Part shown: positions 1,529 to 61,572 of the stretch, piece by piece
Numbering within the stretch: the stretch's first letter is position 1
Layout: the number at the start of each line of letters is the position of its first letter
Source of the DNA: Minisyncoccota bacterium
GTDB lineage: Bacteria; Patescibacteriota; Minisyncoccia; Phycocordibacterales; UBA918
Direction of reading: 5' to 3'
Length of the DNA: 64,000 bases
NCBI GenBank assembly: GCA_041389045.1
Contig: JAWKSQ010000001.1
Span: 11,063-75,062 of the forward strand
Notes under the pieces: generated by a model
The model's input: the letters and a program-made list of their open reading frames with translations, nothing else
Databases searched by the model: none
Told to the model about the DNA's origin: nothing
Translations under genes and position numbers: made by a program

Positions 1529-1945
1529 ATGACTGCCCTCCTGATTGGTGGGCTGACGCTCGCCTGTTGCCTACTCGTTGGCTATGCTACCGAGATCTAC
1601 AGCCACGGACTGAGCGAGATCTTTCCCGCCCTCAAGATGGTGTTGAAGCAATTTGGCATCATCACAGGCGTAGTCGGCGCAGCAGTTGTGATGGTGTTCA
1701 AGGCACCGACCGAGACCGAAAGGATAGTCTCTTCCCTGGTAGTTTTTTGCTTCGGTACCTTCCTGGTGCCGTCTGCCGCCTACGTCGGCTGGTTCATTGC
1801 CCGAACCTGGAGCTACTTCGTCGGGTGCGAACCACCTACGGAGCCAAGTCCCGGATGCGCAAGCATCCGGGACTTTTTACGTCAAATTTTTAATCTTTTG
1901 TACTTAATATCCAAACCCAAAACTTCCAATCGATTGGAAGTGTGA
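1529..1945 (+). CDS. Hypothetical membrane protein
   Basis: The frame is hydrophobic and TM-like, whereas the overlapping 1480..1893 frame is R-rich junk. The ORF reads through a terminator hairpin. Confidence 0.45.
   Translation: MTALLIGGLTLACCLLVGYATEIYSHGLSEIFPALKMVLKQFGIITGVVGAAVVMVFKAPTETERIVSSLVVFCFGTFLVPSAAYVGWFIARTWSYFVGCEPPTEPSPGCASIRDFLRQIFNLLYLISKPKTSNRLEV
1848..1878 (+). terminator. Intrinsic terminator hairpin
   Basis: Stem gtcccggatgc / gcatccgggac followed by ttttt. Confidence 0.55.
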
Positions 1946-2117
1946 CAGTCTTAGTTCGGGAAGGTTTTTGACTTAGAGTTTGGGTTGAACTATTTCTTCA
2001 ACTTCGCTAGAATCTAGCACTTCATCAATGTGGATCTGCGAAACAAAGTCTGGTACGTGAGAAACGAGAATCATGGCACCCTTGTAGTCATGTAGAGCTT
2101 TGGCGACATGGTAATGA
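1923..2117 (-). pseudogene. Relic copy of the ABC-F ATPase 3' end plus its downstream region
   Basis: It aligns by eye with 3179..3372 at roughly 85-90% identity. It still reads ...VAKALHDYKGAMILVSHVPDFVSQIHIDEVLD, compared with the intact gene's ...AKALHDYKGAMILVSHVPDFVEQIHIDEVLD. Confidence 0.8.
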
Positions 2118-2158
2118 GCGACCAAATATTAATTTTATCCAGGAGGCAATATGATAAG

Positions 2159-2971
2159 CTAGATTCCTAAATCAGATAGGTCACCTCCTTTTTCAACGTC
2201 TCTAAAAGAATTGGGTTGTATTGCCCTAGGAGCCCTCTTTAGGGTGAAATACTTATTTTCTTCGGGAGTATGTAATCCTTCATTAGTATCAATTTTATCA
2301 GGGTCTTTTTTAGTGTACTCAAACTTTCTTTTATACGCACCACGTACCAGTGCAAATTTTATATTTTCTGCATCAAAAGCCGAATCAAACGCACCCTCAC
2401 TGTTAAGACCTCTATCACGGTGTTCTTGGAACACAAATTCTCGTATATCGATAGCTATTACCCGTTCAAAGAATCTTTCAATTTCCTCACGATTATCTCT
2501 CTCCAACAACTCTAATCCTACATGTTCAATTTCTTCTTTAGGGAAACGGGTAAGTAATTCAATAAAGCCAGCACCGAGACTCTGTTCACTACTAATAAGA
2601 TTGTAGAAAACTTCCCTTAATAGAGAAATTCTTTCTGTTTGACTTAGTTGCTCAAGTCCAAATCGGATAAAATAATAGTAATTCTTCATTTCCGCAGATA
2701 CTGGGTCACCATCTTCTATATCATCTAACTCGTAAATAAATTCAGCGCTAGCTAGTTTTGTGAACTGAGAGACTAAGACTGATCTATCAACTTCTTTTGT
2801 GCCGTAACTAATCGCACTCGTAATAGATGGAAAATCAAGGTCTTCCCTTTTAATATTTATTTCTTCTTCACGTTTTTTTATTCTTTCTTGATTTTCTACC
2901 TGCCTAGCAGCTGCCTGTTCATCTGTCTCTCCCTTATGTATTCTCCTCACAATCCTTTCATTTGGTGGCAT
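2159..2971 (-). CDS. Hypothetical protein (270 aa, acidic, no recognised domain) carried on the insertion between the ABC-F 3' repeats
   Basis: This is a long clean ORF. The antisense ORF 2211..2606 is low-complexity shadow. Confidence 0.6.
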   Translation of the reverse strand: MPPNERIVRRIHKGETDEQAAARQVENQERIKKREEEINIKREDLDFPSITSAISYGTKEVDRSVLVSQFTKLASAEFIYELDDIEDGDPVSAEMKNYYYFIRFGLEQLSQTERISLLREVFYNLISSEQSLGAGFIELLTRFPKEEIEHVGLELLERDNREEIERFFERVIAIDIREFVFQEHRDRGLNSEGAFDSAFDAENIKFALVRGAYKRKFEYTKKDPDKIDTNEGLHTPEENKYFTLKRAPRAIQPNSFRDVEKGGDLSDLGI

Positions 2972-3052
2972 ATAAAACTTATATTAGCTTTTATACCACT
3001 AAGTATCTCTCTCTCTTTGATTTTGCAAGTATATTAAATATGCCTGTTTTAA

Positions 3053-3084
3053 TTTACTCGTTTACTCGTTTACTCATTTACTCC
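3053..3084. repeat. Tandem 8-nt repeat, tttactcg x4 (last two copies degenerate)
   Basis: Read directly as tttactcg tttactcg tttactca tttactcc. It lies upstream of the 270-aa ORF. Confidence 0.9.
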
Positions 3085-3178
3085 ATCTAATCTAAACAAA
3101 ATCTTAGTTAACTGATGGGTCATGTTAATACCCCAATCGGTTGGGGTACTGAAAAGTTAACTGACTGAATCACAAAGC

Positions 3179-3372
3179 CTTCCAATCGATTGGAAGTGTG
3201 GCAGTCTTAGTTCGGGAAGGTTTTTGACTTAGAGTTTGGGTTGAACTATTTCTTCAACTTCGCTAAATCCAGTACTTCATCAATATGGATTTGTTCCACG
3301 AAGTCTGGAACGTGAGAAACGAGAATCATGGCGCCTTTGTAGTCGTGAAGGGCCTTGGCAATAACAGGAATG
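3179..3372. repeat. Second copy of the ~195-bp direct repeat (the functional 3' end of ABC-F)
   Basis: It pairs with 1923..2117. Both copies begin with the palindrome cttccaatcgattggaag. Confidence 0.8.
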
Positions 3373-4727
3373 TGGCGGAAGTTGATATGGTTGGTTGGTT
3401 CGTCGAGAATGAGTAGTCCCGGCTTTTCCATGGTGAGTTTGGCAAAGGCCACCAAGCCTTTTTGCCCCTCAGAGAGATTACCAACTTTAGTTTTCATCAC
3501 ATCACCAAAGAGTAGGAAACCAGCGGCAATCGAACGCATTTCTTCTTCAACTTTTCGTCCCATTGAATCCATCAGAGTTTCAAACACGGTTTTATCAAAA
3601 GCTAGGTTAGAAAAGTCTTGCCGATAGTAACCAATCTTTACTCCCTCCGTTACATGCTCTCCCTTGGCATGACCTGAAGCTAACTTCTCGAGCAAGGTCG
3701 TCTTTCCAATACCGTTTGGACCAACTATCTGCAGGTGCATACCACGCTTGAGAACCACCTCTGTTTCAACTTCTTTTGGTTCATGATTTTTTATAACAGT
3801 AACTGAAGAAAGTCTGACGACTTCAAGGGGAATGTCGGCGTGTGGTTCGATAGTGAATGGGCGAATAGTTTTATCCTCACGTCTAACATCCACTTTATTC
3901 TCTTCCGCTTCTTCTATTTCGTCACGCATCCGCTTGGCTACTAAACGCATTTTACCTCCCTTACTAGCAAAGTAGTTCACTTTGTCTTTATTGGCTTGAA
4001 TTTCTTTCGCGAGTCGCGCGTTTTCACGTTGCTCCTTTTCTACTTGAGCGGCAATATCTTTAACCACTGCGTGATAGTTACCATTGTACTGTTCGACTTG
4101 TCGGTTTTGGGTATTTAAATAAAGTACCCCGTGTGTGAAAGCATTAAGGAAATCAGCATCATGAGAAATCACTAAAACGGTTTTTTTGTATTCCTTAAGA
4201 AAGATAGTTAAGTGCTCGATACCAGCCACGTCGAGATTGTTGGTTGGTTCGTCTAAGAGTAGGACGTCAGGATTTTGGATGAGGGCTTGGGCTAAAAGTA
4301 ACCGAGCTTGTTGTCCACCCGAGAAACTACCAATGATTCTGTCTTTGAAAGTTTCTTTTTGCTTATCAGTTGGAGTGAGATTTACAATCTCGAGAGCTGA
4401 ATCAATCCGTGGATCAATGTCGTACATTTTCTCTGCAAAACATTTCGCAAAAAATTCTCGGACAGTTAGCCCCATTTCATTGCGAGGAATAATCTGCCGA
4501 GCAATAGCGATAGTGGTTTTGGGTTCGATATTTATATCTCCTTCATCAGGTTGACGGTCTCTAGTAATGAGAGAAAAAATAGTACTTTTACCAGCCCCAT
4601 TTTGACCCATAAGGGTTAGCTTGGCACCACGACGCACGACAAAATTTGCCTCCTTAAGAATAGGCCTGGTCGCATCATACTCGTACGACACATCTTTAAA
4701 AACTATAATTCCGTCGCCTCGTGACAT
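3246..4727 (-). CDS. ABC-F family ATPase (two ABC domains, EttA/Uup-like)
   Basis: Two Walker A motifs (GQNGAGKST, GPNGIGKTT), two LSGG signatures (FSGGQQ, LSEGQK) and a linker with coiled-coil character. Confidence 0.92.
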   Translation of the reverse strand: MSRGDGIIVFKDVSYEYDATRPILKEANFVVRRGAKLTLMGQNGAGKSTIFSLITRDRQPDEGDINIEPKTTIAIARQIIPRNEMGLTVREFFAKCFAEKMYDIDPRIDSALEIVNLTPTDKQKETFKDRIIGSFSGGQQARLLLAQALIQNPDVLLLDEPTNNLDVAGIEHLTIFLKEYKKTVLVISHDADFLNAFTHGVLYLNTQNRQVEQYNGNYHAVVKDIAAQVEKEQRENARLAKEIQANKDKVNYFASKGGKMRLVAKRMRDEIEEAEENKVDVRREDKTIRPFTIEPHADIPLEVVRLSSVTVIKNHEPKEVETEVVLKRGMHLQIVGPNGIGKTTLLEKLASGHAKGEHVTEGVKIGYYRQDFSNLAFDKTVFETLMDSMGRKVEEEMRSIAAGFLLFGDVMKTKVGNLSEGQKGLVAFAKLTMEKPGLLILDEPTNHINFRHIPVIAKALHDYKGAMILVSHVPDFVEQIHIDEVLDLAKLKK

Positions 4728-8765: not shown

Positions 8766-8890
8766 AGTTGATTGGGTCTATACCAGACCCAACAATCACG
8801 GCCACATCGCAAGATGTGGCCGTCTTTCTTTATTAAAAAACGCCGCGGGCTGAGTAGCTGCGGCGTTTCTCACAATATCCTTCCTTTGGA

Positions 8891-9181
8891 CTAGTGAACA
8901 GTGAACGAGTCAACAAGTTCAACTTCAATTGCCGGGAACTTGTCTCGAGTCAGTTTCACTAGTTGCGCTTCCAACTCCCTCTCTGAGTTGAGAAGTTTGA
9001 ACTTGGTGCATAGTGAACCACCTTCTTTTCTACACACCTTCACTTCAATAACCACCTGACTTGTGATCAAGTTGACGATTCTGGCACAGCGACGATCGTG
9101 GCAAAAGAAAACGCCGTGATTACGAGCGTCAGAAATATTTGCCGCAACCTCTTCCAGGTTACCTTGAAATTTCTTTACCAG
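8891..9181 (-). CDS. Hypothetical 96-aa ORF with no ATG/GTG/TTG start; possible CTG start
   Basis: The open frame reads LVKKFQGNLEEVAANISDARNHGVFFCHDRRCARIVNLITSQVVIEVKVCRKEGGSL.... A GAGGAGG lies 7 nt upstream of CTG. The ORF is absent from the track because it lacks a canonical start. Confidence 0.35.
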   Translation of the reverse strand: MVKKFQGNLEEVAANISDARNHGVFFCHDRRCARIVNLITSQVVIEVKVCRKEGGSLCTKFKLLNSERELEAQLVKLTRDKFPAIEVELVDSFTVH

Positions 9182-9390
9182 GTAAGGACCTCCTCGTAAC
9201 CAAGTACGGGCAAAAATTGATGGCCGTTTTGTCTTTTTCGGCCGAAGCGTAACCTATCATCAAAAACTCCCAAAAAAGTATGCTGAACGAAAAACAACCC
9301 GCGGGTACTTTATATATTATTTAACTAGTAGTCAAGCAACTAGAAAGCTACCTTGTCAGTTTGACTAAGGGTGGTTTCCACCCTTTTATC

Positions 9391-9431
9391 CGCTAAACAC
9401 CCCAAATGTAGTACATTTGGGGTGTTTAGCG
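9391..9431. other. Perfect 19-bp hairpin
   Basis: Stem cgctaaacaccccaaatgt / acatttggggtgtttagcg. It makes the 9386..9568 track ORF doubtful. Confidence 0.7.
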
Positions 9432-9579
9432 TGAAAAGCATCATTTTGATGCCGGCTGATAGGAACTAAGTTTGGACTCTTATTTTTGTAAAAATTTATC
9501 TTTTGACTCAAATCAGACAGAAGAAAATCCGCAACAGAGATTTTCTCCGGTGCGGACTCAGGATTCAAAATAACAAGAC

Positions 9580-9962
9580 CTACCTTTGCGGTCGATCCTG
9601 ATCAAAGTGACTGACGATTTTTACAACCACACGGTCAACCTTGTCTGGTGCAAACCTTTCAAAAAGTGGCACCAGTCTCTGTTGCGAAGCAATGAGACTT
9701 ACAGTCATAGTTTCCGCCAGCCCAGCTTCACCTTCTACGATGACTTCCGCTATTACAAGTTTTTCATATACATTCCATATTTGGGCAGACCTTTTCTTTT
9801 CAGAGTAACCTGTGCAATAACGCTTCACGACATCTGATAATCCCTTGACTAAATGATCCAAATCGACACGAAAATCTGCCACATAAGAACCACGGGCTTT
9901 TCCCAAGACTTTGGGGTAGGGACTATCTGCTTGGGGTCAAAATAAACACTATTACTAATCAT
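9580..9962 (-). pseudogene. Hypothetical protein with a 1-nt frameshift near codon 19
   Basis: The RBS gaaggag with ATG at 9962 gives MISNSVYFDPKQIVPTPKS. The main ORF (9580..9906) is in another frame, and one extra T in tctt joins the two. Confidence 0.5.
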
Positions 9963-10276
9963 TTCTGACTCCTTCAAAGGTTGAATAACTAGCCAATACA
10001 AGATTTCTCCAAGATTTACTTTAGTTGTAATCTATAAACAAGTCAACTGTAAATTTCAAATAACGATTCGTTACGCGGAGCACAAGAAAAAAGACCCGAG
10101 CGGGACACAGGTCCAGCGAGGGTCTTTTTCTTAGTGCGAAAAGTTTTCCCTATTCTAGGAACTGAGATTTTCTAAACGAGACCAGGCAAAAGACCCAAAA
10201 ATTTGTGAGCTGTACTGATGGGTACAGTGAACAAATTTTTGGGCCTTTTAACGCAGTATCGTGACGAAAATGTCTG

Positions 10277-10747
10277 TTACCAAGCGAAGTGGGCAAAAGC
10301 TCGGTTAGCCTCTGCCATCTTGTGAGTATCTTCCTTCTTCTTCACGGCTGCTCCTTCTTCCTTAGCAGCTAGCTTAAGCTCAGCGGCTAGTGCCTTGTGC
10401 ATTGGTACACCTTTTTGTTTGCGAGCACCTGAGATAATCCATCTTAGGGCTAGAGCCATTCGGCGCTCAGGACGAACTTCACGTGGCACCTGGTAGTTTG
10501 CTCCACCAACTCGGCGTGAGCGTACTTCCATCAGTGGGCCAGCATTTCGTACTGCAGTATTAAATATCTCTAGTGGATCTCCCCCATCTTTAGCATTCTT
10601 TATTTCTTCAAACGCCGCATAGACAATCTTGCGCGCAGTCTCTTTTTGACCACGAAGCATGATGTAGTTGATTAGTCTTTCAACATCAACCGAACCATGG
10701 ACTACGTCTGGAGAAACAACAGGTCGTTTCTTAATTGGTCGTCTCAT
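10277..10747 (-). CDS. rpsG: 30S ribosomal protein S7
   Basis: Full-length S7 sequence (…GANYQVPREVRPERR…LKLAAKEEGAAVKKKEDTHKMAEANRAFAHF). Confidence 0.97.
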   Translation of the reverse strand: MRRPIKKRPVVSPDVVHGSVDVERLINYIMLRGQKETARKIVYAAFEEIKNAKDGGDPLEIFNTAVRNAGPLMEVRSRRVGGANYQVPREVRPERRMALALRWIISGARKQKGVPMHKALAAELKLAAKEEGAAVKKKEDTHKMAEANRAFAHFAW

Positions 10748-11168: not shown

Positions 11169-11579
11169 CTAAGCCTTCGGTTTTTTGGCGCCGTACCTTG
11201 AGCGTCCCATCCTTCGTTCGGCTACTCCCGTTGCATCGTACTTACCTCGAACAATAGTGTATTGCACACCAATGTCCTTAACGCGTCCACCACGTACTAG
11301 TACCACTGAGTGTTCCTGCAAGTTGTGCTTGATACCAGGAATGTAGGCAGTGATTTCTTGACCATTACTTAAGCGCACACGGGCAATCTTTCGAATCGCA
11401 GAGTTCGGCTTACGAGGGGTCTTAGTGGTAACACGAGTACAAACGCCACGCTTAAATGGAGAGTTGTAATAGTTAGGGCGGTTCTCGATTTTGTTAAATC
11501 CAGAGTGTAATGCCCCAGTCTTACTCTTCCGAGCTGGGTTGGTTCGCTTCTTTCGTGATAATTGATTTATTGTTGCCAT
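11169..11579 (-). CDS. rpsL: 30S ribosomal protein S12
   Basis: Full-length S12 sequence ([12 protein letters not shown]...[22 protein letters not shown]...). Confidence 0.97.
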
Positions 11580-30661: not shown

Positions 30662-30854
30662 GAGATACTCCTTGAAACGAAAGAACTAGACCGCTCGTGC
30701 GTACGAGCATCCTTGCGTCAGCTTGGACTCTTTTATGCTATCACAAGCAAATAAAGTTACAATAGTGGCTTTCACACTATTTATTAATAGTGTGTTCGCA
30801 GTTAAATTTATGCAACTCTTTTAAATATCATTATCGCTATCCTATCCGCCTTTT

Positions 30855-31123
30855 ACTTTACATCCCACCCCTTCTTATATATAGTGCTCGGCTTGTGCCG
30901 GGCATTCTTCGTGAGAAATTTGAAAAATATCCAGAAAAACCTTTATTTTTAAGCTTATTTAGATTATTAACCTAAGAAATTATTATGTTTGACCTAAAAG
31001 TAATCAATGCCGTTCTTGAAGAAATGGAGACAGAACGTGGTATTGCTAAAGAAAAATTAATCGACGCTATTGAGCAGTCTCTAGCTACCGCCTACAAAAA
31101 GGAGTTTGGGAAGCGTGGCCAAA
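30855..31123 (+). repeat. Direct repeat copy 1: nusA upstream region plus the first 46 codons
   Basis: It is identical to 33365..33649 except for 2 substitutions and a 16-nt indel, counted by eye. Confidence 0.9.
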
Positions 31124-31155
31124 GCAAAACCGCTATACATTGGGAAACAAAATAG
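30985..31155 (+). pseudogene. Truncated nusA 5' fragment (46 NusA codons fused to 10 foreign codons)
   Basis: MFDLKVINAVLEEMETERGIAKEKLIDAIEQSLATAYKKEFGKRGQ is followed by SKTAIHWETK*. Confidence 0.85.
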
Positions 31156-31403
31156 ACGATGTCTTTTTAGTCGCTATTGAGTTCAGCTTTCTTGCGAGCT
31201 ATGCTAGTAAAGACACGAAGATAATTCATCTTGAGCGTTGTATCTCAAGAGTAGATTTACTAAAAATATTATTACAGCTGGCATGGGAAATCCGTGCTCT
31301 CGACACAAAGAAATACACAGTGTTAAGTGAGCAATTACAGGAAGTCGGTAGGATGCTCGGTGGTTGGAAGAAAGGATTAGAGACGAAAAACTCCCCACAT
31401 TAG
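31140..31403 (+). pseudogene. avd: Avd-like four-helix-bundle protein (DGR accessory variability determinant family), 5'-truncated at the repeat junction
   Basis: The frame is open back to the junction at 31124 (…RYTLGNKIDD…). The C-terminus LSEQLQEVGRMLGGWKKGL resembles the Avd / 23S-IVS four-helix-bundle signature (…VGRILGSWI…). Confidence 0.65.
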
Positions 31404-31421
31404 TGAGGAGAAAACGATGTG

Positions 31422-31535
31422 TTGCTTGACCACCAGACGATGGCGATTGTCGGCATTCCAGACGTTGTCGTTCTCGAAGCGGTTCACGTTGGCCTTGAGC
31501 TTAACACCATTCACGTTGACGTTAGCGACGAACAG
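31422..31535 (-). repeat. DGR template repeat (TR), 114 nt, adenine/AAC-rich on the minus strand
   Basis: It aligns without gaps to 31856..31969. There are 20 mismatches, 18 of them at TR adenines. It reads ...ANVNVNGVKLKANVNRFENDNVWNADNRHRLVVKQ. Confidence 0.85.
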
Positions 31536-31780
31536 AAACGATATGTGGAATATACCATCCATACCACCAACGTTTGATAGTAAACTAACGAACGCATGAA
31601 TTTTATGCGAGACCTAAAAGTCTTCCAGTATACTCCACCAACAAATTATTTTTTGAAAAGAAATAATATATCTATACTTCACTTAGCCGTGACTTCATGA
31701 ATTCTAAGTTACACATTTCTGCACACAAACTTCCAAAGCCGTAACCGTTGAAATAGTATTTGCGGCCTCTTTAGTATACG

Positions 31781-31815
31781 AAAAAATCCCTCGGACGCGC
31801 GAAGCGTCCGAGGGA
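31781..31815 (-). terminator. Hairpin/terminator immediately downstream of the VR
   Basis: Stem tccctcggacgc / gcgtccgaggga with a T-run on the minus strand. Confidence 0.7.
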
Positions 31816-31852
31816 TAAAGAGTCAAAGACCTAAGAGCTGAGTTCAAGCAGT

Positions 31853-32448
31853 CTATTGCCTGACCACCAGACGAGGGCGACTGCCGGCATGCCAGACGTC
31901 GTTGCTCTCGAAGCGGAACACGCAGGCCTCGAGCCCCACACCATACACGTCGACGAGAGCGACGAACAGCTCGCCATCCACTTCAAACAAAAAGAAGGTA
32001 CCGTAGCCTTCCTGCCGAAGTGAGTCGCTGTGCGAGCGACAGAACTCCACGATCTGCCCCTGTGTGAGACAGAGCTTACGCGGATCACCGAGCGAACCGA
32101 ACAGCGTTTTGAATGTGCCGTTGCGGGTCATTTCGTGCACGTCAACTTTGGCCTCGGCGGTGTCTTCGCCAGTGACATCGGTGCCCCAGTTTTTGAAGTC
32201 ACTGTCGATGTAGCCGGTGAAGACCTTTGTGGCCTTGACCAGTGTGGCGTCACCCTTGGTTGAGGGGAGCGTGATGGTTGCGAGGTGGCGCAGATACGAA
32301 TACTTCTTGTTGCCACCAAGTACCGATTCTATTTCTCGAAACTGCTCGGGAGTCGCTTGCCCAAACTTGGTGACAAGCTCGGCATTCCAGCCGACTGCCT
32401 CCAGCTTTTGACCAGCTGGGCGATTTGGTTGAAGCTGTATGAAGACAT
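31853..32448 (-). pseudogene. DGR target protein (~198 aa, GC-rich) with the VR at its C-terminus and a 1-nt frameshift at codon ~15
   Basis: The ATG at 32448 gives MSSYSFNQIAQLVK. One extra A in the aaaa run (32406..32409) joins this to LEAVGWNAELVTKFGQATPEQFREIE...VFRFESNDVWHAGSRPRLVVRQ*. The length of 596 nt equals 3n-1. Confidence 0.75.
31856..31969 (-). repeat. DGR variable repeat (VR), the last 38 codons of the target ORF
   Basis: See the TR alignment. VR codons CTC, GAC, TAT, GGG, GAG, TGC, TTC, AGC, CAT, GGC, AGT, CCT and AGG replace TR AAC/AAT/AAG/GAC/CAT codons. Confidence 0.85.
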
Positions 32449-32814
32449 GTCTTCATTCCTTTCCGGCACATGTGCCATTTTGCCAGCGGGTTTCCAAAAT
32501 TGGATTTACCATAGCTTTAAAGCAATAATTGAATTACAAACTTAAAGCTATGGTAAAAGTTTTTAATGAACTGCTTGCCCACCTTTAAATACAGTCATAG
32601 AATAAACATCTATGAACCAAGGAAACAAAAGAGAACATCTACACTAACTCAGGCAACTATAATACCACATTTCTGACTATTTAGCAAGGCATAATAAAAA
32701 CTTGGTTCATATCATCCAGACCCTGGGCCTTTACGTAGGGCGGGAGTTTGAGATGTTGGACGAAGTAAAGGCTTAATAGCGAGAATAAGCAGGCTTGTGA
32801 AACTGAGAAATTAA

Positions 32815-32846
32815 TGTATGATAATTTCATATTAAATTATCATACA
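32815..32846. promoter_or_regulatory. 13-bp inverted repeat operator just upstream of the antitoxin start
   Basis: tgtatgataattt cat att aaattatcataca ends 6 nt before the ATG at 32852. Confidence 0.55.
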
Positions 32847-32851
32847 ATTCT

Positions 32852-33019
32852 ATGTCTACTATTTCTGTACCCCTAACCCCTGAGCTTTCAAAGTACATTG
32901 AAGAAGCTACTAAAAGTAGCGGCTTAACTAAGTCTGATATAATGCGTCAAGCCCTTACTCTCTACGCCGAAGAACAGGCTGTTCGTAAGGTACTTCTGGC
33001 AGTCAGTGAACCTTCCTAG
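32852..33019 (+). CDS. RHH (CopG/ParD-like) antitoxin, 55 aa
   Basis: MSTISVPLTPELSKYIEEATKSSGLTKSDIMRQALTLYAEEQAVRKVLLAVSEPS. It is below the ORF-track size cut-off and lies directly upstream of the toxin. Confidence 0.7.
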   Translation: MSTISVPLTPELSKYIEEATKSSGLTKSDIMRQALTLYAEEQAVRKVLLAVSEPS

Positions 33020-33059
33020 AAGGTGACCTATGTGATCTAATGGAAAAATTAGACTAAAC

Positions 33060-33317
33060 ATGCAAATCCTTTACAAGCCATCGTTCGTTCGAGAATTTAA
33101 AAAACTACCAGAAGAGTTAAAGGAAGCAGCCTTGGAACGCATTGAATTATTTAAAGACCCCTCAAATCACGACAAGCTAAAAGTCCATAAACTTAAAGGT
33201 AAATTAAAGGATTTCTACAGCTTCTCAGCCACCTACTCGCACCGGATCGTATTTATGTATGAGCAGAAAGAAACTGTAGTTTTTCTAGCCATTGGTGACC
33301 ACAGTGTTTATAAGTAA
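33060..33317 (+). CDS. RelE/ParE family type II toxin
   Basis: MQILYKPSFVREFKKLPEELKEAALERIELF...HKLKGKLKDFYSFSATYSHRIVFMYEQKETVVFLAIGDHSVY matches the RelE/ParE pattern. Confidence 0.8.
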   Translation: MQILYKPSFVREFKKLPEELKEAALERIELFKDPSNHDKLKVHKLKGKLKDFYSFSATYSHRIVFMYEQKETVVFLAIGDHSVYK

Positions 33318-33364
33318 CACCCAAAATCCATCCGAATTCGCCTTATCAAAGGTAGCAAAAATTC

Positions 33365-33649
33365 ACTTTACATCCCACCTCTTCTTATATATAGTATAAG
33401 GACTCATGAATGCTCGGCTTGTGCCGGGCATTCTTCGTGAGAAATGTGAAAAATATCCAGAAAAACCTTTATTTTTAAGCTTATTTAGATTATTAACCTA
33501 AGAAATTATTATGTTTGACCTAAAAGTAATCAATGCCGTTCTTGAAGAAATGGAGACAGAACGTGGTATTGCTAAAGAAAAATTAATCGACGCTATTGAG
33601 CAGTCTCTAGCTACCGCCTACAAAAAGGAGTTTGGGAAGCGTGGCCAAA
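33365..33649 (+). repeat. Direct repeat copy 2 (native promoter/5' end of the intact nusA)
   Basis: It pairs with 30855..31123. Confidence 0.9.
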
Positions 33650-34932
33650 TCATAAATGCTCACTTTGACCTCAACACTGGTACCACTACTTTCAACCAGA
33701 TCAAGATTGTGGTTGACGAAGACATGCTTAAGCCAGAGCTAGCTGATGGTGAAGAAGACGTCGAGGAAGAAGACGAAACTCCAGCTGATGGTGAAGAAGA
33801 AAAGAAGATTCGTTTTGACGATGAAAAGCATATTATGCTTTCTACCGCTAAGATGATTAAGAAAGATGCCCAAGTGAACGAAGAATTGGTTTTCCCACTA
33901 GAACCACGAGACGATTTTGGTCGCATTGCTGCTCAAACAGCCAAGCAGGTGATCGTCCAAAAAATTCGTGAGGCTGAAAAAGAAGCAGCTTTAGCTGAAT
34001 TCGGACAGAAAGCGGGTGACATTGTCATGGGACATGTTCAGCGCTTTGAGCGAGGGAATCTCTACGTTGACCTTGGTCGCGTAACGGCCATCATGCCTTA
34101 TGATGAGCAAATCCCGGGTGAAAGATATAAACCAGGCGAAAGAATCCGTGCCCTTCTGGTAGCCGTTGAAGAAACTTCACGCGGTATTTTCCTCAAGCTT
34201 TCACGTTCTCATCCTGATTTTCTATCTGGTCTATTTGCGATTGAAGCACCTGAGCTCCAAACCGGCGTAGTTGAAGTAAAGGCGGTCGCTCGCGAAGCTG
34301 GTGCCCGGTCTAAGATTGCCGTTTATGCTTCTGACCAACACATTGATCCAGTAGGGTCTCTAGTAGGACAACGAGGTGTTCGAGTATCGACGGTCATGAG
34401 TGAACTAGGTGGCGAGAAAATCGACATCATCGAATGGTCGCCAAACGTATCTGAGTTTCTGGAAGATTCTCTTTCTCCAGCTCAAGTACTTTCAATTAAA
34501 ATTGTTACTGAGCCAGATGCAGAAAAGAACGAACGCGGTCACGCTATTGCTGAAGTAGCTCCAGACCAACAGTCCCTAGCCATTGGTCGTGGTGGACAGA
34601 ACGTTCGCCTCGCTGCCAAACTGACTGGTTGGAAGATTGATATCGTTTCAGCGCAAAGTGGCGAAGCTCTAGCCGAAGCTGACGCTAATGGAAAGGTGGA
34701 CTTAGAGGCTGATGTCGACACTCCGGTCGGAAGTGATGAAGATGTACTGGAAAATGAAGACGCTACGACAGTAAATCCAGAGCTACCAAGTGAAGATGAA
34801 GCGACAAATGACCGTGACACCAATCCTGACTCCGAGGAAGAAAACGAAATCGATACTCCAGAAGAAGCAGAAGAGCTGGTAGCGGACGAACAAGACAAAG
34901 CTGACGTAGAGAAAGATGAAGAAAAGAAGTAA
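33511..34932 (+). CDS. nusA: Transcription termination/antitermination factor NusA, with an acidic insertion and an acidic C-terminal tail
   Basis: NusA N-terminal domain, S1 (GDIVMGHVQRFERGNLYVDLG), and KH1/KH2 (GQRGVRV, GRGGQNVRLA). Confidence 0.93.
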   Translation: MFDLKVINAVLEEMETERGIAKEKLIDAIEQSLATAYKKEFGKRGQIINAHFDLNTGTTTFNQIKIVVDEDMLKPELADGEEDVEEEDETPADGEEEKKIRFDDEKHIMLSTAKMIKKDAQVNEELVFPLEPRDDFGRIAAQTAKQVIVQKIREAEKEAALAEFGQKAGDIVMGHVQRFERGNLYVDLGRVTAIMPYDEQIPGERYKPGERIRALLVAVEETSRGIFLKLSRSHPDFLSGLFAIEAPELQTGVVEVKAVAREAGARSKIAVYASDQHIDPVGSLVGQRGVRVSTVMSELGGEKIDIIEWSPNVSEFLEDSLSPAQVLSIKIVTEPDAEKNERGHAIAEVAPDQQSLAIGRGGQNVRLAAKLTGWKIDIVSAQSGEALAEADANGKVDLEADVDTPVGSDEDVLENEDATTVNPELPSEDEATNDRDTNPDSEEENEIDTPEEAEELVADEQDKADVEKDEEKK

Positions 34933-42837: not shown

Positions 42838-43468
42838 CCACCGGACTTAGGTCCGGCGCTTTAATTTCATCTAGTCGGATGAACCATCTGCCGGATTAAG
42901 CCGGCTGAACTAGTTGCTAGGAGATTGGTTTGTTAAATAGTGATGGTTGATCAACTTGATTATGATGATCTTGATGCTTCAGTGCCGACGGATAATCATT
43001 TCATCTAGACCGATCGTAGAGACGAAATAACCTCTATAGTTAGAGTGATTCTTTTTCATAGAGACCATGAGCACGTTTTATTTTCTTCTTCATCAAGCTG
43101 AGCTTTTACCTTTGATTATTTGCATCAGGTACGAGACTGAATCCCTCGGAGAGCACTCAGTATTAAGTGGATATGATCATCTTGGATGTTTAGTTCGATT
43201 ATTTCCCAGTGTCTGTATTTAGTGATTGATTCAAAGGTACGTCTCAATTCATCTTTAACCTTTTGTGGTCCTAGTACCTTGCCTCGGTATTTTGGAGTCC
43301 AGACGAGATGGTATTTCATCTCGTAACAATGTGCTAGTGTTTTAATGGTACGTTGCGCATACGTATTTAAGTTATTACTAAAGCCGACCGCCCGCTTCAC
43401 TGTATGCGTTGCACTTCAAACGTACTCTCCGGTGAAGCCGGAGGGTTTTTAGGGATAACAAAACCCCG
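42838..43468 (-). mobile_element. Degenerate IS200/IS605-family element (tnpA relic plus end hairpins)
   Basis: Hairpins are at 42840..42857, 42890..42905 and 43426..43446. The Y1 transposase relic lies between them. Confidence 0.6.
42979..43400 (-). pseudogene. tnpA: IS200/IS605 Y1 (HUH) transposase TnpA, multiply frameshifted
   Basis: …MKYHLVWTPKYRGKVL…DDHIHLILSA is followed, in other frames, by PRDSVSYLMQIIKGKSS and YRGYFVSTIGLDEMIIRR. Confidence 0.8.
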
Positions 43469-61485: not shown

Positions 61486-61572
61486 GGGAATCGAAGCCCG
61501 ATTGAGCTGGATTATGAGTTTACGAAATAATCCAGCCAATTGGGGTACTGATCCTGTTAAGGATCGATTCCC
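61486..61572 (+). ncRNA. Candidate Y-shaped structured RNA element beside tRNA-Pro
   Basis: The closing helix gggaatc/gattccc encloses a 9-bp hairpin (61507..61535) extended by cccgattg/caattggg, plus a 5-bp hairpin (61550..61565). Confidence 0.3.

Follow-up and report, generated by a model that had tools for sequence, protein, structure and literature searches.

How did a gene of foreign composition, with no recombinase beside it, come to lie between two copies of the end of a conserved translation-factor gene? The question is raised by a 64-kb stretch of a metagenome-assembled genome (MAG) contig (JAWKSQ010000001.1) of a Minisyncoccota bacterium, hereafter the window. In this window, an ABC-F ATPase gene is followed by a 1.06-kb insert with a single open reading frame (ORF), ORF270, and then by a second copy of the ABC-F 3' end. 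With moderate confidence, we read this island as the scar of a RecA-type, homology-anchored gene acquisition and not as a self-mobile element. Related loci are labelled L001, L002 and so on, and motif scans over them cover 915 kb. ABC-F coding ends are compared among 72 GTDB species representatives.

A mosaic repeat around the insert

The direct repeats (1923 to ~2122 and 3179 to ~3378) consist of the ABC-F 3' end and the 3' untranslated region (UTR), and are ~90% identical over 182 nt. Repeats of comparable size form one other family only in the 64 kb. The distal blocks of the two copies (1923-2009 and 3179-3265) match at 86 of 87 positions, with a 64-nt exact run and a single mismatch (A at 1945, G at 3201). 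In the sense of the ABC-F gene, this 87-nt block comprises the last seven codons, the stop codon, a 49-nt UTR and an 18-nt hairpin, H1. Next to it, the left copy alone has an extra base at position 2010, which puts the last codons of the left fragment out of frame (translation, AKALHDYKGAMILVSHVPDFVSQIHIDEVLD). The coding blocks (2011-2104 and 3266-3359) are 83% identical and then decay, with indels, to ~2122 and ~3378. Further upstream, local alignments to the ABC-F gene score no better than shuffles. The repeat is a mosaic, 99% identical and then 83% identical, with a 1-nt indel exactly at the switch, 21 nt ahead of the stop codon. The contrast in divergence (1/87 against 16/93) gives p = 1.7e-4 in Fisher's test.

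The differences between the coding blocks follow the reading frame. In the 31 codons that precede the 87-nt block, 16 of 93 nucleotides differ, and 14 of these 16 are third codon positions. Thirteen of the codon differences are synonymous and one is non-synonymous (GAA/TCG, Glu/Ser); the Ser allele is a natural one, which occurs in L004, L007, and L038. The left and right coding copies are 82.8% identical, and either copy reaches 84-85% at best with the 72 species representatives. The right copy is the nearer one for 32 of these and the left copy for 29, so that the distances are about equal. The GC content at third codon positions (GC3) of the two blocks, 52% and 45%, falls inside the spread of the ABC-F gene. 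Nearly all-synonymous differences at an inter-species distance argue that the left fragment is a functional ABC-F allele from another lineage. Judged by its codons, it evolved inside a working ABC-F gene of that lineage, which rules out a decayed local duplicate. In contrast, the two 87-nt blocks had one sequence in common very recently. In addition, the left fragment carries frameshifting indels yet essentially no amino-acid replacements, and the event is therefore young. With a divergence of ~1% since then, the island is clean and datable.

The resident ABC-F gene itself ends in ...DLAKLKK and the stop codon, identical to its closest orthologue (L001). A sliding-window comparison of the gene with 19 relatives reveals no mosaic, all relatives being ~75-79% identical and saturated. 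The UTR loses conservation even among the closest relatives.

The insert (2118-3178) has a GC content of 31-37%, against ~43% in the flanks. GC3 is 26% in ORF270, and the ABC-F gene has a GC content of 43% and a GC3 of 39%. ORF270 is the sole ORF of the insert and encodes a 270-residue protein with a pI of 4.9 (56 Asp and Glu against 41 Lys and Arg). The left H1 runs on into TTTTGGGTTTGG (1922-1911, minus strand), which provides a terminator T-run and is able to pair with the opening CCCAAAC of the UTR. The right H1 runs on into GCTTTGTG in place of this native T-run. Thus, the added material, ~1.2 kb, separates the stem of the ABC-F terminator from the T-run native to it. Its first parts are 30 nt and a second hairpin (H2); a tandem repeat and the promoter-like leader come next, then ORF270, and finally a 41-nt spacer with the foreign ABC-F fragment behind it.

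On the far side of the left repeat lie two small membrane ORFs, mem1 and mem2. Homologues of mem1 are found in antisense orientation directly downstream of the ABC-F gene in L006, L074, and L002; therefore, the block at 1103-1922 is the ancestral neighbour. The high GC content of this block had made it a candidate for a second foreign cassette, which is rejected because mem1, convergent with ABC-F, is conserved as its neighbour. That the ABC-F fragment continues, hidden, into the 3' end of ORF270 is likewise rejected, by local alignment against shuffles, and a 25-nt similarity between the UTR and a DUF1801 gene is judged to be chance.

Several of these elements had been described in a first-pass annotation made from the sequence alone. 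Its order of repeat, insert, and repeat, its orphaned left fragment, its insert with one acidic 270-residue ORF and a tandem repeat, its palindrome positions (1923-1940, 3179-3196, and 3129-3148), and its proposal that one copy came from a different lineage all hold. The computational alignment that it had called for places the switch between near-identical and diverged sequence at 2009-2011, with the indel. The mosaic structure of the repeat, the native status of the membrane genes, and the existence of relatives of ORF270 were missed in that reading.

Terminators at the repeat edges

H1 (CTTCCAATCGATTGGAAG) occurs at 1923-1940 and 3179-3196, and the first-pass annotation had taken it and H2 as a possible family of palindromes that mark island borders. 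The common motif, CCAATCGNTTGG, has three sites in the window, every one inside this island. With one mismatch allowed, there are 8 strand-matches where 0.8 are expected, and the exact ones are all in the island. The other repeat-flanked island of the window (30852-33660) has no such palindrome. In the 915 kb of related loci, a relaxed pattern matches six times. Four matches lie within 1 kb downstream of ABC-F genes and are hairpins of the H1 or H2 type; the remaining two lie elsewhere and are unrelated. In particular, AAAACCTTCCAATCAATTGGAAGGTTTT is found ~50 nt past the ABC-F gene in L006 and L008, TAATACCCCAATCGATTGGGGTTTT after it in L001, whose ABC-F terminator is of the ACCCCAATCGRTTGGGGT type, and TAATACCCCAATCGATTGGGGTATTA farther downstream in L006. 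In these three loci, the hairpin is a terminator hairpin followed by a T-run. H1 is accordingly the orthologous ABC-F terminator, and H2 is the other type of terminator that relatives have in this intergenic region. The annotation had itself named this outcome, a palindrome that is simply the ABC-F terminator, as one that would undo its border family. A dispersed family of the repetitive extragenic palindromic kind, with many copies at unrelated intergenic sites, is found neither in the window nor in the 915 kb. Scans of viral contigs for H1 and H2 return six matches with unrelated flanks, which we take as chance. A false lead is thereby removed: the palindromes are terminators, not recombination signals.

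H2 also hints at where the insert came from. Its flank and the region downstream of ABC-F in L001 have TTTGTTTAGATT in common, which suggests that the upstream end of the insert is a piece of the orthologous ABC-F downstream region of the donor. An 8-nt direct repeat, GTTAACTG (3107-3114 and 3156-3163), brackets H2 at similar distances and may be chance.

The 12-mer TTGGGGTACTGA within the island does recur exactly at 61540, by tRNA-Pro, as the first-pass annotation had noted. The link that it drew to the structured element there falls away: exact recurrences of at least 12 nt elsewhere in the window involve 15 distinct loci for the island and 15.5 +/- 3.3 for random 1450-nt segments. Rfam (gathering score or E <= 1) returns no RNA family for the UTR or the leader, and the fold z-scores of both are ordinary except at the hairpins.

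The content of the interval between ABC-F and the downstream gene differs in each of L001, L002, L006, L032, and L074, and in this clade the region is variable and prone to repeats. Non-coding repeats lie right after the ABC-F gene in two further loci: a 76-nt direct repeat (96% identical) at 7516-7709 of L040, and a 66-nt perfect inverted copy at 7076-7141 of L037.

A probable recombination scar and its alternatives

A joint within homology paired with a joint without it is the signature of homology-anchored recombination, and the island has one of each. On one side, the repeat is the ABC-F 3' end with its UTR, and foreign sequence gives way to shared sequence at 2009-2011. On the other side, the homology to ABC-F ends at ~2122. 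The insert holds no recognisable recombinase, its sole ORF lacking a Pfam, PHROG, PADLOC, or structural match. All 72 related species lack a second ABC-F coding end; therefore, the island reflects a one-off event and not a recurrent attachment (att) site.

We propose the following course of events. The ancestral locus would have consisted of the ABC-F gene, its 3' UTR, H1 with the T-run, and then the convergent small membrane genes. The donor would be the orthologous locus of another Paceibacterial haplotype, in which an ORF270 cassette with its promoter followed an ABC-F terminator region of the H2 type. Uptake was probably by natural transformation, and two joints would have connected the incoming DNA to the chromosome, a homologous one in the ABC-F 3' end and UTR and an illegitimate one at ~2117-2122, inside an ABC-F copy near codon 452. 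In one route, homology-facilitated illegitimate recombination (HFIR), a linear donor molecule carrying ABC-F, UTR, H1, H2, and ORF270 would replace the recipient ABC-F gene up to codon ~452 and leave the recipient 3' end as a remnant. In the other, equally possible route, a circularised fragment of ~1.26 kb would enter by a Campbell-type single crossover in the shared end. Either route would yield one intact ABC-F gene and one 3' remnant, and the "repeats" would be the donor and recipient copies of one gene end. The mosaic of 99% and 83% identity may be a conversion tract tied to the crossover, reaching to the end of homology at the hairpin, or may come from the separate import of a divergent ABC-F allele. 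The import could end 21 nt before the stop codon because homology between lineages runs out there, the UTR being unconserved.

Both routes have precedents. HFIR accompanies natural transformation in S. pneumoniae, A. baylyi, and P. stutzeri, and its products have one homologous and one illegitimate end (PMC3240628), as does the island, with its homologous joint in a conserved anchor gene. The likeness extends to the ~1 kb of foreign DNA added, to a process that needs no dedicated recombinase, and to a host from a naturally competent phylum. Typical HFIR products delete recipient DNA, however, whereas the illegitimate joint here lies inside the recipient copy of the anchor, so that the remnant mimics a direct repeat. 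A single crossover with a circular molecule duplicates the homologous segment, by 109-950 bp in experiments (PMC3240628), and the ~200-bp segment doubled around the insert is of matching size. The single intact gene, the single truncated one, and the circular permutation of the parts relative to the donor locus also agree with this insertion-duplication. Different are the lack of any recorded replicon or circular form and the copies themselves, which are a 99%/83% mosaic and not reciprocal chimeras. Patescibacteria keep homologous-recombination genes, are naturally competent, and often exchange translation genes (PMC10633639, PMC12455944). The xenologous allele fragment, a fossil of exchange, agrees with these reports. 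The island is thus ordinary in kind, a new example of a known sort of recombination scar. It illustrates how an ultra-small, recombinase-poor Patescibacterial genome can gain a gene, with a conserved translation-factor gene as the homology anchor.

Five observations weigh against this reading. First, no single-step version of it explains a 99% identical UTR block beside an 83% identical coding block, and an extra event, conversion or allelic replacement, is needed. Second, neither an empty site in a conspecific nor the donor haplotype is found: H1 with its flank (CTTCCAATCGATTGGAAGTGTG) gives 0 matches in a metagenome scan, an assembly index gives no exact match to ORF270, ABC-F, or one neighbouring gene, and the closest public genomes are only ~78% identical in ABC-F DNA. 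Third, the 3-10 bp of microhomology expected of HFIR at the illegitimate joint would show only against the donor and the recipient before insertion, and neither parental sequence is found. Fourth, the 3' base of the hairpin stem is exactly where the ABC-F side is joined, so that a hairpin-dependent mechanism could be involved instead. Fifth, the sequence is a MAG contig.

Integrase-mediated islands, phages, and integrative and conjugative elements (ICEs) insert in gene 3' ends and supply a replacement end, as ICESt1 does in fda and as islands do in tRNA and tmRNA genes; phages and ICEs that target gene 3' ends carry such a gene end with them. The island could accordingly be an islet, small and mobilisable, that derives from an integrative element now decayed or mobilised in trans and that entered by site-specific integration, with the 87-nt block as att core and the ABC-F 3' end brought from a previous host. 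The near-identical core (86/87) around the island, the diverged gene sequence on one flank of it, the target gene left intact, and the foreign composition of the cargo are all as expected of such an element, and the order of the parts, with the ABC-F fragment after the cargo, suits a circular intermediate. However, no integrase or other recognisable recombinase, tyrosine or serine, is found in the insert or at the island end, the cargo is 1 kb, and the site is used in 0 of the 72 related loci. The viral matches to H1 and H2 look like chance, and ORF270 has no phage or plasmid match. Moreover, it is the distal copy that has the extra ABC-F sequence, positioned upstream of the identical core, which is the wrong side for reconstitution of the gene. 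We therefore consider an islet unlikely.

An artefact of assembly or binning has a similarly small chance of being correct. Two co-existing haplotypes with a common 87-nt block could have been threaded into one contig: the sequence is a MAG, both copies contain the 64-nt exact run, where an assembly could pass from one haplotype to the other, and the divergent coding blocks resemble two haplotypes. However, the joint at ~2117-2122, between the ORF270 downstream spacer and ABC-F codon ~452, has no shared sequence and cannot be created by an assembler. Therefore, at least one haplotype contains the cassette, the fragment, and the UTR in this order. In addition, the indels of the fragment are typical of a decaying remnant, and reads and final k-mers are commonly longer than the exact repeat. 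In a narrower sense, the assembly could have changed haplotypes within the 64-nt run, which would affect which ABC-F allele lies upstream of the cassette.

Replicative template switching would account for the mosaic in one step. Replication would stall at H1, move to a foreign template with the cassette and a foreign ABC-F end, and return by homology 87 nt upstream, so that the block was copied twice. Identical 87-nt blocks beside a foreign coding block, the joint exactly at the hairpin base, and the 1-nt insertion at the re-entry point all follow from it. However, the foreign template would already have to carry an ABC-F 3' fragment behind ORF270, unless there was a third switch; the model has no independent evidence, and it is rarely documented in bacteria relative to HFIR or single crossover. 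We give it rather little weight.

Hairpin-targeted movement with the palindromes as recognition sites is largely refuted and very improbable: although the insert starts right behind a hairpin, this genome has an IS200-type transposase and solo ends (and L032 an IS200-type element at this locus), and an ORF270-family cassette in L081 also lies between two near-identical hairpins, H1 and H2 are orthologous, perfect terminator hairpins and not dispersed repeats; none of the systems considered creates ~200-nt repeats with a foreign gene fragment; for an IS200/IS605 or palindrome-associated transposable element (PATE), the IS200-like end hairpin of this genome (CTCCGGC-TGAA-GCCGGAG; 1067-1086 and 43428-43447) is unrelated to H1 and H2; the borders (...GGAAG/GCTTTG and ...GGTCGC/TCATT) lack the GTTRRRY core sites of integron attC-like cassettes; and for a group IIC intron, a type that inserts behind terminators, Rfam matches no intron or ribozyme (gathering score or E <= 1) and a reverse-transcriptase ORF is absent.

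The homology-anchored scar also bears comparison with the minimal mobile elements (MMEs) of Neisseria, cassettes that competent bacteria exchange via flanking homology. Common to both are a single-gene cargo between conserved genes and an intergenic content that varies among relatives. Unlike the island, MMEs are swapped cleanly by double crossover, and a gene-end remnant is absent from them.

The ORF270 family, a second island and the surroundings

Table 1. Positions of the features in and around the ABC-F island (window coordinates).
Feature	Position	Strand	Remark
Small membrane ORFs mem1 (1141-1464) and mem2 (1529-1945)	1141-1945	plus	Convergent with ABC-F; GC 45-53%
Left repeat, distal 87-nt block (u)	1923-2009	minus	With H1 at 1923-1940, in native context
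Left repeat, coding part (c_L)	2010-2122	minus	Xenologous ABC-F 3' fragment, codons ~452-486; indels near the 5' joint
Spacer, 41 nt	2118-2158	minus	From ORF270 stop to ABC-F fragment; its end is the illegitimate joint (~2117-2122)
ORF270	2159-2971	minus	Acidic, predicted mostly helical with disordered C-terminal tail; very rare Paceibacteria family
Promoter-like leader, CTTGCAAAAT-(GA)n-GATACTTAnnGGTATA	2975-3029	minus	~20 nt before the ATGCCACC start
Tandem repeat, TTTACTCG x3.9	3053-3083		Upstream of the promoter-like leader; unconserved in other family members
Hairpin H2, TACCCCAATCGGTTGGGGTA	3129-3148		Same type as the ABC-F terminator in L001 and the distal hairpin in L006
Right repeat, distal 87-nt block (u)	3179-3265	minus	Last 7 codons, stop, 3' UTR, H1
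Right repeat, coding part (c_R)	3266-3378	minus	ABC-F codons ~452-486 within the intact gene; 83% identity to the left fragment
Intact ABC-F ATPase gene, 493 aa	3246-4727	minus	Pfam ABC_tran x2 and ABC_tran_Xtn linker

ORF270 (Table 1) is recorded at NCBI for a Candidatus Paceibacterota MAG (locus tag R3B53_00085), and a word-indexed search of 5.8 billion proteins returns only ORF270 itself. It has no match in Pfam, PHROGs, or PADLOC, nothing under E = 0.5 in a profile search of the PDB, and no tblastn match among phages and plasmids. To this extent the orphan status assigned by the first-pass annotation stands; in the strict sense it does not. An exhaustive HMMER pass over 1.84 billion representatives recovers P0002 (270 residues, 42% identity, E = 6e-17) and P0003 (208 residues, E = 2e-4), and a profile search combined with a DNA-motif scan adds P0004, P0005, and a few fragments, giving a Paceibacteria family of ~6 members. 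All members start with MPP and have the core ...ERISLLRxxF.... The structure searches that the annotation had called for yield no significant match. In an AlphaFold2 model from four sequences (pLDDT 64), residues ~90 to ~210 are helical (pLDDT 70-88) and the tail is disordered, and Foldseek against the PDB gives only helical-repeat-like matches, none significant (best E = 0.13). The product is probably a cytoplasmic helical protein, as far as the model indicates.

As in this window, translation genes adjoin other family members. In L099 the family gene sits between rpsL and the genes downstream of it, in L081-L084 it separates fusA from a DsbD-like gene, in L096 it lies upstream of fusA, and in L085 and L101 an MGMT-like gene and tuf enclose it. 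Every member is preceded, ~20 nt upstream of ATGCC, by the leader CTTGCAAAAT-(GA)n-GATACTTAnnGGTATAnAA, which is better conserved than the proteins. This motif is absent elsewhere in the window, from 80 ABC-F loci, and from viral contigs. Differences in leader length are confined to the (GA)n tract and come in 2-nt steps: among the leaders of the window, L081, L083, L085, L096, L099, and L101, the spacer between TTGCAA and TACTTA takes, in order of size, the values 15, 17, 17, 17, 19, 21, and 21 nt. The identical P0002 protein is found in L081 and L083 with leader spacers that are 4 nt apart. Slipped-strand variation of a promoter spacer would give this pattern, and the promoter could be phase-variable. 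A tiny, fast-evolving family with a repeat tract in its leader is maybe of interest for the interaction between epibiont and host.

In L096 (3212-4064, minus strand), the family leader stands ahead of a 152-residue ORF (MPPFNQ...) that is followed by a 111-residue ORF (MPPFSQ...), and both have only their first codons (ATGCCACCATTTA...) in common with ORF270. The leader and the MPPF start thus seem to be attached to small acidic proteins that are otherwise unrelated or highly diverged. In L081, terminator hairpins of the form AAAAGCGGCGCC-nnn(n)-GGCGCCGCTTTT, at 878-904 and 1822-1848, bracket the P0002 cassette. The two hairpins are 89% identical and differ in the loop only, and fusA has a separate long terminator hairpin at 711-837. 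The cassette could be a second case of an insertion that duplicates a terminator.

The other island of the window (30852-33660) lies at nusA. Its repeats (30852-31134 and 33362-33660) consist of the nusA promoter and first 41 codons and are 98-99% identical over 283 nt, with one 16-nt indel between the copies. The right repeat runs on into intact nusA. The left joint is illegitimate and truncates the bAvd gene, which lacks its 5' end (31140-31403). The cargo consists of a remnant of a diversity-generating retroelement and a gene for a ParE/RelE-type toxin (33060-33317). An inner repeat pair (31422-31535 and 31856-31969) is 82% identical, and wherever the copies differ, the first has T and the second may have any base. 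Read from the minus strand, A is set against N, the pattern by which template and variable repeats differ in a diversity-generating retroelement. The island contains no reverse transcriptase. Two scars in 64 kb suggest that this is a usual way for the genome to gain DNA.

A broader idea, which we offer with little confidence, is that the ABC-F island, the nusA island, and the P0002 cassette of L081 are recombinase-free, "homology-tagged" cassettes, with the ORF270 family as contingency-type cargo in which (GA)n slippage switches the promoter spacer. If true, each cassette would bring along a fragment from the end of a highly conserved housekeeping gene, a portable address by which RecA-dependent integration could follow transformation, and cassettes could so pass among diverged Patescibacteria.

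Beyond the membrane genes, a 62-nt IS200-type end (1041-1102) adjoins the DUF1801 gene in a 3' fusion that lengthens its ORF by ~16 residues; its hairpin region consists of CTCCGGC-TGAA-GCCGGAG and a T-run. This is a solo end, and the GFA-like gene that occupies the position in L001 and L006 is missing here. A truncated tnpA copy with the same end lies at 43125-43461 (Pfam Y1_Tnp, E = 3e-15), and a full copy lies immediately 3' of the ABC-F terminator in L032 (7510-8070; Y1_Tnp, E = 1e-32). In the usual str operon, rpsG is followed by fusA and tuf. Both of these are outside the window, in which rpsL (11169-11579, minus strand) and rpsG (10277-10747, minus strand) are ~420 nt apart and are followed by ~1.5 kb without a long ORF (8766-10276).

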